From: Escherichia coli
GTDB taxonomy: Bacteria > Pseudomonadota > Gammaproteobacteria > Enterobacterales > Enterobacteriaceae
Reading direction: 5' to 3' (one strand)
NCBI RefSeq assembly: GCF_024298765.1
Contig: NZ_CP101211.1
Length of the DNA stretch: 64,000 nucleotides
The position numbers were made by a program. Positions 50,101 to 56,100 of the stretch are shown one piece after another. Numbering within the stretch: the first letter of the stretch is position 1; each line of letters opens with the position of its first letter.

Positions 50101-53100
50101 AATAAAGAAAGATTGCAGTATCTTTTTTCTCAGGATATTTACGGTAAGTTGTATAATTCCTTAGAGAAAGAATTAAGCTCGTTTTTCTCATTTATCAATG
50201 TTGAGGTGCACGAGTTGTTAAAAGATGCTGTATGCTTTGCATTAAAAATCCTGAATAAGATATCTTTGGATACACCTGAAAGACTTATTAAAGCTTTTAA
50301 TTATCGTGACTGGTATTGTAGTTACGATGTTGAGCTTTTTAGGAAAGGCTTACCTGGTCATATTCTGGAAGAGCTCATTGCTCCAGATATCTTACTTTCA
50401 GACCTTAACGGTTGTAGAAAAATACTTAGAAATGCAAAACGATTTCTAAATGGACATACACAAACCAATTGTGTTTATATTAAATATGAATGATGGTTGG
50501 GGCCTGTTGATACCTCACACTCAGCTAAGTTGATGTCTGACAAAGAAATTAATAACCGAAGTGACTTGAAGAATTTTTCAAAGGTCTTTTTCAAAGAGTG
50601 TTTAAGTTCTGGTAAGTCGGAATATGAAAACCATCTTAGTGAAAAAGAACATGCGCTTCGCTATAATTATTAATTAAAATTATTTTCTCCCATAGGGATT
50701 TCTCCCTATGGGAGAAATCCCTCTATTAAGAGGGTATTGAAATGAATGCTATACAAAAGTTAGTTGAATCTATTCTTGTTAAAATGGGTTTTGTTGGCGC
50801 TGTAGTGGAAAATATATATTTGGATTCAAAACCATTTCGGCATATTCGATTTGTGGCTGATATTCCAGTAATATCTTTTCTACCTCATTTGGTGAAATAT
50901 CTTAAGGGTGCAGACCATCTTTACAGTGGTAACGATGATTTGCATCCTCTTTTCATTTATTTTTCCGAAGCGGCTACATTAAAAGCAGGTCCTGTAAATC
51001 TCGCGAACTTTCGTTTTGAAGTTTCTATAGCTTCAACTCATTTACGACTGGTCTCAGAGCAGCCTGATTTGCTTTTCAAAGGATTTAACCGGGATAATCT
51101 AGAATACGTTTATTACCGCTCAGATTTGGCCTCTAAGGATCTTATACTAGGCCTTGTTGAACACGGTTCTCCTTTCATAAAACATCTACATGGACTTATA
51201 CAAAAGCGAATTTTAAACGAGTTCTCTCTGATTTTTTCTGTTCTTGAAAAGATTTTAGAAAGCGCGAAGCCACAAATTCTTGCTTGCTTCCATAGTGTTG
51301 ATTATGAAATGAACGTAAAAATAATAGCCGAAGCTATACCTGAAACTGTATCTAATCAGATAGTCACATCTGATTATATAGTTAATTCTATATCAGATGC
51401 GGACAAGTTTATAAATCATGTTCGTCGCTATTTAGCAGGCAGGGTAATGAAGAGGCGGATATACGCTGAATTAGATGTTTGTGAAGAAACATCAAGTATT
51501 TCACTAGTGAACTTAGGATGCTTTACGTCTCCTCTGCTCGTTACGGAATATCAAATGTTTAAGCCACACTCTTCAGGGTTATATCGAAAAGCTATAAACA
51601 ACTCCTTAAAACAGTTCAAACCAGAAATGCATGTACCTTCTGAAGAACTCTTTTATAATTAATCTAACCCATCCGGGAACCTGCTTCCCGGTGGGAAGCA
51701 CTTCCTTTTTAGTCATGAGGTAGTGTAAATGTTTAAAGAATCTGACCACGTGGAATTTGTTAGTGCCTTTCTTTATCAAAATTTAGGCCTTAATGTTTCC
51801 GCTGACGATATAACCGTTCAATTATCTGATACTTCGTTCGACAAAGTAACCTTTGATTACGATGTAGATATCGATAATTTAAATTGTATGTTGGATCTCT
51901 ACATATCTGAGCTAATAAAGCACAACGCATCTTACTCCGATTCTATTCTTTTGAAACAAAAAATAATTTATTTTCTTGGAGTATTTAAGAATTTCGGATT
52001 TTTTACGTTTGATATTCGCGGATATAGTAATACTTTAAGCCCAGTTAAAGTTATTGATATTGTTTCAATGATTATTAATGACTGTGAAGAGTTATCTAAA
52101 GCTAATTCTTCTACTGATGCTATAAGAAATCTTTATCTCGATAAAATGAAGGTGGATGGGAAAGTGTTAGTTGCGAAATTTGCACTTAAACAGTTTTTTC
52201 ATTCCGACTTTGGTGACTTTATCTCATTTGTCGAGAAAAGAATTACAGATTGTCTTAATGAAACTTTAAGGATTATCAAAGCTGTTGAACATGGCTTTGT
52301 ACGTGTAGGGCAGCATAAGATTAATCGCCGTATTAATGATGACTTAAAGTTATGCATTGATTTCAATACTGATGATTATCCGGCAAATATGCCAGATATA
52401 TATATTAAGTTTAACGATACATTTGATGGGAACGGGGCGTTATATTGTGACAATGATGCCCTCATATCCCTCTATACCGATGTTGCTTCAATTATCAATG
52501 TGCCGGTGATGATGGAAGTAAGATTGATCAATAAAAGAGGGCGTGTTGTCTGTGATTCTTCGCATTCAACTTACGTATCTCTCGAAAGTAATGACCGATA
52601 CAGAGTAACTGATCGCACATTACTAATAACTGAAGCTTTTGACGATTTTCGTAACGCGTCTCAATGATCCTTTTGCTTCAGTCCAAAAAAGTAACTTTGG
52701 TTGGCTGAAGACACTTGTCTATGACAATGTAAAATCTGTCGCTGGCATCTTCTTTTAGCTTAACCAAATTTTTATCTAACCCAGTGGGGAAGTCGCTTCC
52801 CTTCTGGGGCACTTCCTCTCAAATTCGAGGTAGTGTATATGACACATTCATCTGATGATAAAAACTATGTCCGAGCAGTTCTGAGTTATCTTGGCATAGA
52901 TTTTGATGAGGCGGATATAGTATTAAGTGTTTGCCATTGTCAAAGTGACGAGCTTTCTTTTACCTGTAATATCAAAGCTATTGAACTCAAGAATGCTGTT
53001 GATTTATATGTCGATAGTATCTCTGAGAATGAAATAGAAGCTTTAAACAGAGAATCTTTAAAATCGCGACTCTGTTACTTTCTTGAGGTGTTTGACGCAG

Positions 53101-56100
53101 TCTCTGGTCAGTACCTTGAAATTTCAGGAAAACACTTTGCAACTAGTCGTTTTGAATATGATGATGTTTGTAGTGAAGTTCTTAGCATGTCTAATGATGT
53201 TTCTCAGTCGAAAGGTTATGACCGGGATGAATATAACAGACTGATGCAGGTTGATGGTCAGGTTATGATTGCCCGTTTTGCTTTGCAACAGTTCTGGGAT
53301 ACTCATTTTATTGGACTAATAACATTTGTATCTGAGTCTATAACATCGAGCCTCTATAAAGCTTATGAAACTTTTAGTGATATTAGTTTGGCTTGCTATA
53401 AACTGAGTGAATATTCTTATTCACGCTCGGTAATGACTCCAACTTATTGATAGTGTTTTATGTTCAGATAATGCCCGATGACTTTGTCATGCAGCTCCAC
53501 CGATTTTGAGAACGACAGCGACTTCCGTCCCAGCCGTGCCAGGTGCTGCCTCAGATTCAGGTTATGCCGCTCAATTCGCTGCGTATATCGCTTGCTGATT
53601 ACGTGCAGCTTTCCCTTCAGGCGGGATTCATACAGCGGCCAGCCATCCGTCATCCATATCACCACGTCAAAGGGTGACAGCAGGCTCATAAGACGCCCCA
53701 GCGTCGCCATAGTGCGTTCACCGAATACGTGCGCAACAACCGTCTTCCGGAGCCTGTCATACGCGTAAAACAGCCAGCGCTGGCGCGATTTAGCCCCGAC
53801 GTATCCCCACTGTTCGTCCATTTCCGCGCAGACGATGACGTCACTGCCCGGCTGTATGCGCGAGGTTACCGACTGCGGCCTGAGTTTTTTAAATGGCGGA
53901 AAATCGTGTTGAGGCCAACGCCCATAATGCGGGCGGTTGCCCGGCATCCAACGCCATTCATGGCCATATCAATGATTTTCTGGTGCGTACCGGGTTGAGA
54001 AGCGGTGTAAGTGAACTGCAGTTGCCATGTTTTACGGCAGTGAGAGCAGAGATAGCGCTGATGTCCGGCGGTGCTTTTGCCGTTACGCACCACCCCGTCA
54101 GTAGCTGAACAGGAGGGACAGCTGATAGAAACAGAAGCCACTGGAGCACCTCAAAAACACCATCATACACTAAATCAGTAAGTTGGCAGCATCACCTTCA
54201 CGCTCTATCAACAGTGAATTGACCCTTAATATTTCACTTAAAGAAAATGACTTCTGTGAGGACCTATCTGATTGCTATATGGAAGATGAGGCTTTACCTT
54301 CTGGTAGGGTAATTTCTCGACGCAACAATGACTCCATAATAAGTATTTATGAGAGCTATGCTGCGGCTTCTTATATTCCGATGATTGCATCTTTGGAAGT
54401 CGTTGATGAATACGGCGAAGTGGTTACTGACCTCTGCCATACCGTTTATGTTTCAGAGTTAACCGGTGGGCGGATTAAAATCCACGACCGTAATGACTTA
54501 GTATCTGAAGTTTTCGATAACCTAAGAAATTTAAATCTTGCAGTTGGAGATTCAGTTTCACAAGCTGCTTGATTCTTTCCCTGATTTTGATTTTTTCTCA
54601 CATACTCTTATGGCACGGTTTCCGTGCCTTTTTTTTGCCTCGCTTACAAGCGTCTACTCCTCTTCTACCTATCCCACCTTACATCACCACTTAAAATCTA
54701 TCTTTCTAATTCCATTATCCTTTTCGTAGCCTCTAATGCTCTGGTATGAACATACTCTTTAAACTCAAAAAAGTGCTATTAACGAAAAAAAATCCCTAAA
54801 GAGATTTGTATACTGTTCTCAACCAAGGAGAGCTCATGAATGAACTAAAATCCAAAAACGAGAACAGTACCAAAAGCAACTTTCCCCCGGTTGATAATCA
54901 GTTTTGCTTTTACCATGTTGATTTCAGCATAGAACGACTACTTTCTACGGCCGAGGATCTCCAGCTTGAGTACATCTTCCAGAAACCTGGAAGTGAAGTA
55001 AGAAAGGATTTGGTTGAGCGATTCGAACGTGGAGAGCGCTTTGTTACAGCTTCACACTGTGACAATTTCTGTGAAATCCTTGGTTGTCAAGGCCATCAGG
55101 AAAATGCATAAACCCATAAACCTACATTTCCACTTTTAAGGATGTTCACTAAAGAATGATTGGAGAAAGTATTTTTGACTGGGTAATTTACGGAATATCC
55201 ATTTTGATATTTGCCTCAGCACTAATTGAAGGAAAGACAACTCGCTACCCAGCACTTTTTTTCTATGGGAGTTTAATTTTAATGTTAATCCTGATAGTTG
55301 CTGGAGGCCTTAACTGGTGGTTCTACAGGTCAAAATATGGCGCAGTAATCGTTATCTTCACAGTGGTTTCTTTACTGATGACTCGATTCCGCCTGGTCAT
55401 ATATAAATTAAGATTAAGAAAGTTAGTTTCAGAGATCAGATTTCGTATAAAAACGGGTTTTCGTATAATTCTTGTTTTGTCGGATAATGAGGATGAGCGT
55501 AATGTTCTGCTGTCTATGCTTAGCAACGTATTGCCAGAGCAAACGCTTATTCACACGCGTGATGCTCTCGGACCTCATTCAGGGCCTATCCTAAAAGCTC
55601 TTGAGCTACATCATCAACAGGGAACAGGTTACATACTCGTCTGTGAACAACAAATCTCAGCGCGTACGTGGTTGAGTATCGTAGAAAATGGGAAACCTGA
55701 TACATCTATAGCTGTTAATTTTCATTCGATCCCAGAAATGGAGTGATTTTTCAATGAGTAGAACCGTTTCACAAAGTGTCACAGAAGATTGTCTTTTTGA
55801 TACCCGCACACAAGTCAGATTACAACTAAGTCGAAGCGTTCATAAAACGCTGGCATCTGCTAAAGAAATTTTACAGGGAAGGGGGGTTGATTCGGTCTCT
55901 ATTGAAGATCTTGTGCGAGCCTGTCTTGAAGAGAACCAGCCAATTGATCTCGCCTCACTTTACCTTGAAAATCTCTTAAAACAGAAAGGTACCAGCATTT
56001 GCGATTTTTAGTGTTTTCAAACCTATTAGATAAAATGCCGGTTGTGTTTATATAACATCAATAATTTCATGCAACAGGTAAAACATGAGTACTCAAAAGC

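Follow-up and report, generated by a model that had tools for sequence, protein, structure and literature searches.

The 64-kb stretch of Escherichia coli DNA that we analyzed (hereafter, the window) contains a complete IS1 within a gene, here called gene E, of an IncHI2 plasmid backbone. On the sequence of this single assembly, we consider it highly probable that the split arose by ordinary IS1 transposition into codon 197 of the 318-codon gene, leaving a 9-bp target duplication, and that this insertion is recent and private to the plasmid lineage. According to this reading, the R100 isoform of IS1 would have transposed into codon 197, staggered cleavage of the target followed by repair would have generated the duplication, TTCACGCTC, and the reading of gene E would then end six IS-encoded codons past residue 197. 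Nothing that we found in the sequence contradicts such a simple insertion.

The element occupies positions 53429–54196 on the minus strand, in the opposite orientation to gene E, and is exactly 768 bp long, such that all of the coordinates given in the first-pass annotation proved right. Its termini are canonical (GGTAATGACTCC... at the left and ...GGCAGCATCACC at the right), with IRR forming the left end (53429–53451) and IRL the right end (54174–54196) at gene E, and with 18 of the first 23 nt of both ends matching as imperfect terminal inverted repeats of the GGTGATG.../GGTAATG... type. On the same minus strand lie insA (53866–54141), which encodes a 91-residue zinc ribbon and helix-turn-helix (HTH) repressor (Pfam Zn_ribbon_InsA and HTH_Tnp_IS1), the A6C slippery motif TTTAAAAAAC (53884–53893), which is the programmed -1 frameshift site leading from insA to insB', and the insB' frame itself (53444–53947), corresponding to the DDE catalytic part of the transposase. 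When a -1 shift was simulated at A6C, a fused InsAB' protein of 232 residues was obtained that matched Pfam DDE_Tnp_IS1 (4e-78, 260.5 bits against a cut-off of 24.1), HTH_Tnp_IS1 (93.8 bits) and Zn_ribbon_InsA (73.9 bits), as well as the NCBIfam equivalog NF033558 transpos_IS1 (242 bits against a cut-off of 100, 5e-72). The published description of IS1 includes a length of 768 bp, imperfect inverted repeats, production of InsAB' via a -1 frameshift at A6C and a target duplication of 8 or 9 bp (PMC12428005). Over its 768 bp, the element presents 100% nucleotide identity with the IS1 copies of R100 (NC_002134.1) and pHCM1 (NC_003384.1), and the same isoform is carried by thousands of enterobacterial plasmids besides R100. 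Compared with the IS1 of R100/NR1 ("IS1-like element IS1B family"), the length, inverted repeats, insA, A6C, insB' and 9-bp duplication are all shared and the element itself shows no differences; the insertion site alone is new. Judged by its sequence features, the element is a member of the IS1 family in which all sequence requirements for transposition are intact, and the copy at gene E is thus predicted to be transposition-competent.

Directly outside the two ends of IS1 lie the left (53420–53428) and right (54197–54205) copies of TTCACGCTC. The flanking direct repeats previously described at these positions are indeed perfect, with no difference between the two 9-mers, and no third occurrence is found on either strand of the window. 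The chance that two given 9-mers are identical is about 4^-9, i.e. 4e-6. The empty site can be seen in the sibling plasmid pR18.0877_278k, where one TTCACGCTC is found at the corresponding position. The insertion target is AT-rich, with a local GC content of 30–34%, as compared to 42% for the window as a whole.

Both parts of the split gene are on the plus strand. The 5' part (52839–53428) comprises codons 1–196 plus 2 nt and equals the first 590 nt of the gene for WP_000149830.1 in pAPEC-O1-R; its ATG at 52839 is directly preceded by a GAGG ribosome-binding site and is annotated likewise as the start in sibling plasmids. The 3' part (54206–54572) contains the rest of the codons up to 318 and the stop codon, with no start signal of its own. 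The first-pass annotation proposed that the original reading frame could be restored by excising IS1 and one repeat copy in silico, and this was borne out: joining 52839–53428 to 54206–54572 gives an in-frame ORF of 957 nt and 318 residues, with no internal stop, which reads ...SEYSYSRS-INSELTLN... across the joint. The DNA of this ORF is that of the intact coding sequence of WP_000149830.1 in pAPEC-O1-R (NC_009838.1, 54296–55252), with no substitutions.

In the split gene, translation from the native start runs into the IS-encoded positions 53429–53450 (plus strand), which add VMTPTY before a stop codon, so that the truncated product has 203 residues, of which 197 are native. The AlphaFold model of the gene E protein is confident (pLDDT 89.3), and its C-terminal domain begins where the insertion falls, at residues 197/198. 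As the truncated product would, according to this model, lack nearly the whole of this beta-rich domain, gene E is almost certainly inactivated by IS1. The gene is evidently dispensable for survival of the plasmid. On the plus strand, 40 nt past the gene E stop, a hairpin resembling an intrinsic terminator is found (54612–54636; GGCACGG-TTT-CCGTGCC followed by T8), at which gene E would appear to close its own transcription unit. Since gene E has a terminator of its own, the genes downstream are probably unaffected by IS1 and little polar effect is to be expected. No match to the gene E protein was found in Pfam, NCBIfam, PHROGs, PADLOC, PDB sequences or PDB/BFVD folds, and our literature search retrieved no paper on WP_000149830 or the neighboring genes.

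The window as a whole represents IncHI2 plasmid backbone and is near-identical to records typed as IncHI2A / MOBH / MPF_F, which are annotated with a RepB-family (RepHI2) initiator and the IncHI-type transfer genes trhB, trhV, trhN, trhI and htdO/T. Its gene order and sequence are those of the R478 / pAPEC-O1-R type of backbone, the closest siblings including pR18.0877_278k and pEC21Z137-237K. Only 6 SNPs and no gaps separate it from pAPEC-O1-R over 12.6 kb, and 6 SNPs in 48 kb from pEC21Z137-237K. When the 24 kb surrounding the site were compared by BLAST, many IncHI2 plasmids aligned as two blocks of 100.0% identity, with a length difference of exactly 777 bp, i.e. IS1 plus one repeat copy. 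These 777 bp, found inside the gene for WP_000149830.1, are the only structural difference over the 24 kb, and once they are removed the flanks are fully collinear, as expected from the simple insertion that had been postulated.

The junction between gene E and IS1 was found in none of the collections that we searched. A junction probe gave no match in 5,426 complete E. coli genomes, and the junction was also absent among the matches listed for PLSDB, where a full-length match would have ranked first. The exact 38-mer junction GAATATTCTTATTCACGCTCGGTAATGACTCCAACTTA was absent from 100,044 GTDB species-representative genomes and from JGI metagenomes. The truncated product of gene E, when queried from either possible start, returned no exact record, although the query from the GTG start, having been translated with V rather than M, was a weak look-up. 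Some IS1 matches extended by 20–37 nt into the left flank, which could have suggested a shared target. We rejected this reading, as the extensions (93–96% identity) reflect a ranking artefact: taking the longest from the flanks of thousands of IS1 copies will select such chance matches. The absence of the junction from the collections searched and the lack of substitutions in the two gene halves indicate that the insertion is recent and restricted to the lineage of this plasmid, in line with the first-pass annotation, which had called it recent; the perfect duplication agrees with this. It should be noted, however, that divergence between plasmid backbones is only about 0.05%, such that 0 substitutions in 957 nt serves as a coarse clock, and "recent" should be taken as a relative term rather than a precise date.

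Gene E is the last of five genes, A–E. Directly upstream lies its intact tandem paralog D (51729–52667, plus strand, 312 residues), to which the reconstructed protein aligns by BLASTP with 27% identity over 309 residues (E 3e-37), and the D–E pair is also kept in a diverged IncHI-like contig. A profile search revealed only 42 representatives of D/E-type proteins (WP_000149830.1 / WP_000472041.1) among 1.84 billion proteins, and their confidently predicted fold found no counterpart among solved structures. Genes A, B and C, upstream of D/E, encode proteins of similar size (~300 residues). The earlier description of gene E as belonging to a paralog family is firmly supported by sequence comparison only for the D/E pair; A, B and C appear to form separate sequence groups. 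B and C are weakly similar to each other (BLASTP, E 1e-7), and profile comparisons by hhalign link the groups only weakly (A vs B/C: probability 83%, E 9e-6, 237 columns; A vs D/E: probability 46%, E 2e-4, 226 columns; D/E vs B/C: probability 1%). Among the IncHI-type plasmids compared, the array holds 2, 4 or 5 genes and always lies between a toprim/DUF7146 gene and the gene for a Tus-like terminus protein. Our search of the literature on IncHI2 plasmids found nothing on the array. In the plasmid considered here, gene B carries a nonsense mutation (TGG to TGA at 50491–50493), an allele inherited from a wider sub-lineage and independent of the IS1 event.

Other routes to the same arrangement should be considered. 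IS1 is abundant in such plasmids, with additional copies present in sibling IncHI2 plasmids, and resistance plasmids often show rearrangements bounded by IS1. Homologous recombination between copies of IS1 might have brought in the element, or the element might mark one boundary of a composite transposon, a cointegrate or a deletion. Such origins predict non-matching flanks or rearranged neighbors, whereas here the 9-mers are identical, the flanks rejoin to an intact gene, the 24 kb are collinear with relatives save for 777 bp and the window holds only one IS1 copy. Given the matching duplication and the collinearity, we consider this origin effectively refuted and retain a very small probability for it. 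We assign an equally slight chance to the insertion being an artefact in which the assembler misplaced an IS1 repeat. IS copies are a classic source of misassembly, and the junction is known from one assembly and was found in none of the collections searched; nonetheless, a misplaced repeat would not produce a perfect 9-bp duplication at the exact termini of IS1, nor would both halves of gene E be preserved to the base.

The insertion might also be real but selected, with loss of E, together with the nonsense codon in B, lowering the cost of the plasmid or adapting it to its host. Of the five array genes, E and B are both inactivated here, IncHI-like plasmids differ in how many array genes they have (2 to 5), and IS elements are found in or beside the same array in other IncHI2 plasmids. 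These also fall within this AT-rich stretch of hypothetical genes, namely an IS1 in the D–E intergenic region of p602A1-220K-mcr3, an IS903B within the region of E. coli JX21CE8 matched by a query spanning D and the 5' part of E, and, in pMRSN791417_8, an IS1 in the 178-aa gene that lies downstream. Each is, however, a single and independent event at another site, and none has the junction described here. Of the 278 E. coli records with gene E, 275 (~99%) have it intact, at an identity of at least 99.4%, and orthologs at 43–65% identity keep their full length, which points to purifying selection rather than recurrent loss. As, in addition, the IS1 allele is a singleton, the A–E array is AT-rich DNA of the kind that IS1 prefers, and the B nonsense codon arose separately, we regard a selected insertion as unlikely.

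An ordinary transposition of IS1 thus remains our preferred reading, and the event should be considered a textbook case of insertional inactivation, apparently real but ordinary. It matters very little in itself. The backbone is that of a well-sampled resistance plasmid. Nonetheless, the unique junction of GAATATTCTTATTCACGCTC with GGTAATGACTCC offers a ready lineage marker for tracking this plasmid in outbreak and surveillance data. More speculatively, and with a low probability in our estimation, gene E could be one unit of a variable-copy array of fast-diverging orphans of ~300 residues that form a new protein class acting in plasmid establishment or in interaction with the host (e.g. anti-defense). 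If so, the decay of E and B in this plasmid would reflect a host-specific loss of need, while the IS1 event would still be ordinary. As a natural knockout of an uncharacterized, conserved IncHI2 backbone gene, the allele may be compared for phenotype with many isogenic intact plasmids.

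We determined the insertion coordinates by reading positions 52700-54700 directly and checking them with a script, and every coordinate that the first-pass annotation had assigned to the IS1 element, its flanking repeats and the two halves of the split gene (gene E, 52839-53428 and 54206-54572) was reproduced. The only IS1 copy in the window occupies 53429-54196 (768 bp), starting with GGTAATGACTCCAACTTATTGATAG and ending with ...CAGTAAGTTGGCAGCATCACC, both of which are canonical IS1 termini. The 9-mer TTCACGCTC abuts both ends (53420-53428 and 54197-54205) and has no further copy in the 64-kb window, whichever strand is read, the probability of two specified 9-mers agreeing by chance being ~4e-6. 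In the sibling plasmid pR18.0877_278k, the empty site contains a single TTCACGCTC. GC content at the target is locally 30-34%, as compared with 42% for the window, and such an AT-rich target fits the known preference of IS1.

Intact in all its parts, the element occupies the minus strand relative to gene E. Its ends, IRL (54174-54196) and IRR (53429-53451), match at 18 of 23 positions. On the minus strand, insA (53866-54141) encodes 91 aa, the slippery motif TTTAAAAAAC is found at 53884-53893 and the insB' frame extends to 53444; simulating the -1 frameshift produces an InsAB' of 232 aa. This protein matches Pfam DDE_Tnp_IS1 (4e-78), HTH_Tnp_IS1 and Zn_ribbon_InsA, as well as the NCBIfam IS1 equivalog, with scores far beyond each cut-off. 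Over its 768 bp, the element is 100% identical to copies in R100 (NC_002134.1), in pHCM1 and in thousands of further plasmids. The features found here, like a target duplication of 8 or 9 bp, belong to the published properties of IS1 (PMC12428005). By every feature that can be tested from sequence, the element is thus a member of IS1, and it does not depart from the textbook case in element, mechanism or footprint; the novelty lies in the site alone.

In-silico excision joined 52839-53428 to 54206-54572 in a 957-nt frame encoding 318 aa, with no internal stop and with the predicted joint, ...SEYSYSRS followed by INSELTLN.... The rejoined DNA equals, base for base, the coding sequence of WP_000149830.1 in pAPEC-O1-R (NC_009838.1 54296-55252), so that the two halves carry zero substitutions.

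The window corresponds to the opening 64 kb of an IncHI2 plasmid. Its genes include those for a RepB-family (RepHI2) initiator, trh/htd transfer and parA/parB, together with an AAA-DUF3150-VWA-toprim block, the array to which gene E belongs, a Tus-like gene, and genes for an integrase and Hha. From pEC21Z137-237K it is separated by 6 SNPs and no indels over 48 kb; against pAPEC-O1-R, the sequence after excision shows 6 SNPs and is free of gaps over 12.6 kb. Positions 40000-64000 are matched in exactly two pieces at 100.0% identity by many IncHI2 plasmids, whose hosts are E. coli, Salmonella, Enterobacter, Klebsiella, Shigella and E. albertii, and their counterpart of this region measures 23,224 bp, namely 24,001 minus 777. 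IS1 and a single copy of the duplication therefore account for the only structural difference, and the remainder of the 24 kb is collinear with these relatives, as expected of the simple insertion originally proposed.

Several other features of the window were also observed. About 13 copies of a non-coding 249-bp tandem repeat (76-86% matches) span 12124-15594, between a TraC-family gene (8955-11636) and parA (16002-17255), with a GC content of 0.48-0.51 as compared with about 0.40 around them; this repeat array contains no ORF of at least 100 aa and is not annotated in the near-identical pEC21Z137-237K. At ~22100-23300, a GC spike (0.536) corresponds to an IS5-like ISKpn26 (transposase 22167-23147, minus strand) adjoining a short ParM-domain gene (21362-22066), both identities being transferred from the annotations of the near-identical pEC21Z137-237K and pR18.0877_278k. 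At ~61270-64000, a CoiA-family gene is apparently split into two annotated fragments by an IS100 (istA/istB; sibling coordinates 61065-62866, to which 777 is added for the window), and the GC content peaks at 0.538 in 62001-63000.

With coverage of at least 80%, a 240-bp left-junction probe had no match among those listed from 72,556 PLSDB plasmids, nor in 5,426 complete E. coli genomes. The exact 38-mer junction was not found in 100,044 species-representative genomes or in JGI metagenome contigs, and the truncated product has no record among 153 billion gene positions. Intact gene E, on the other hand, is present at 99.4% identity or better in 275 of the 278 E. coli records carrying the gene. 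Because junction and truncated product are unrecorded, the intact allele prevails and the halves are unsubstituted, these comparisons show the insertion to be derived, private and, as had been suggested, recent. The event amounts to a gene inactivated by standard IS1 insertion, on a plasmid backbone that has been sampled heavily.

Homology of the reconstructed protein to its upstream neighbor D (51729-52667) had also been claimed, and was confirmed (27% identity over 309 aa, E 3e-37); the two are, by this alignment, clearly paralogs. The D/E family is very small and unannotated, comprising 27 clusters, all labelled as hypothetical and all from Enterobacterales, in a word-seeded search across 5.8 billion clusters, and 42 representatives at 50% identity, about a dozen of them full-length, in an exhaustive profile search of 1.84 billion proteins; it has no match in Pfam, NCBIfam, PHROGs, PADLOC or PDB sequences. 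The wider notion of a paralog family stands firmly for this pair only, as the similarly sized upstream genes A (48789-49667), B (49738-50673) and C (50742-51662) belong to distinct groups by sequence. B and C are weakly similar (E 1e-7), while profile-profile comparison gave 83% probability for A with B/C (E 9e-6, 237 collinear columns), 46% for A with D/E (E 2e-4, 226 collinear columns) and 1% for D/E with B/C. Given these scores, it is plausible, yet unproven, that all five genes form one highly diverged family. The number of these orphan genes, each coding for roughly 300 aa, varies from five in IncHI2 to four in the diverged IncHI-like contig L006 (4943-8948; A-C-D-E, no B) and two in contigs L007 and L008 (7106-8867). 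These contigs keep both flanks, upstream the AAA-DUF3150-VWA-toprim block with its toprim/DUF7146 gene, as well as a 173-185-aa gene, and downstream small genes, a Ter/Tus-like gene, an integrase and Hha.

The AT-rich block containing gene E has also been hit, independently, by IS insertions in other IncHI2 plasmids. In p602A1-220K-mcr3 (L002, about 3170-3940), an independent IS1 lies within the D-E intergenic region, while in pMRSN791417_8 (L003, 5736-6433), another independent IS1 interrupts the 178-aa downstream gene, the upstream array having been lost in association with ISVsa5. In E. coli JX21CE8 (NZ_CP178439.1 52476-55270), IS903B lies inside the match to a query made of D and the 5' portion of E. 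Besides E, B is the second inactivated gene of the array: at 50491-50493 it reads TGA where pAPEC-O1-R has TGG, shortening it from 311 to 251 aa. The TGA allele also occurs in S. enterica Goldcoast pR18.0877_278k and at 100% identity in 4 of 60 rows sampled evenly from 1,115 matching plasmids; its presence in other plasmids marks it as inherited and as independent of the IS1 insertion.

Disrupted gene E now encodes 203 aa, of which 197 are native and the last six, VMTPTY, precede a stop. In a confident AlphaFold model (26-sequence alignment; pLDDT 89.3, pTM 0.83), an alpha/beta region at the N-terminus is followed by a central helix of 45 residues (146-190) and a beta-rich C-terminal domain (193-310). 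As IS1 interrupts the protein at residues 197/198, almost the whole of this last domain would be missing from the truncated product. Beyond the gene E stop, a strong hairpin resembling a terminator, with a T8 run (54612-54636), makes polar effects on the following genes unlikely. The IS1 allele constitutes a natural knockout for an uncharacterised gene array.
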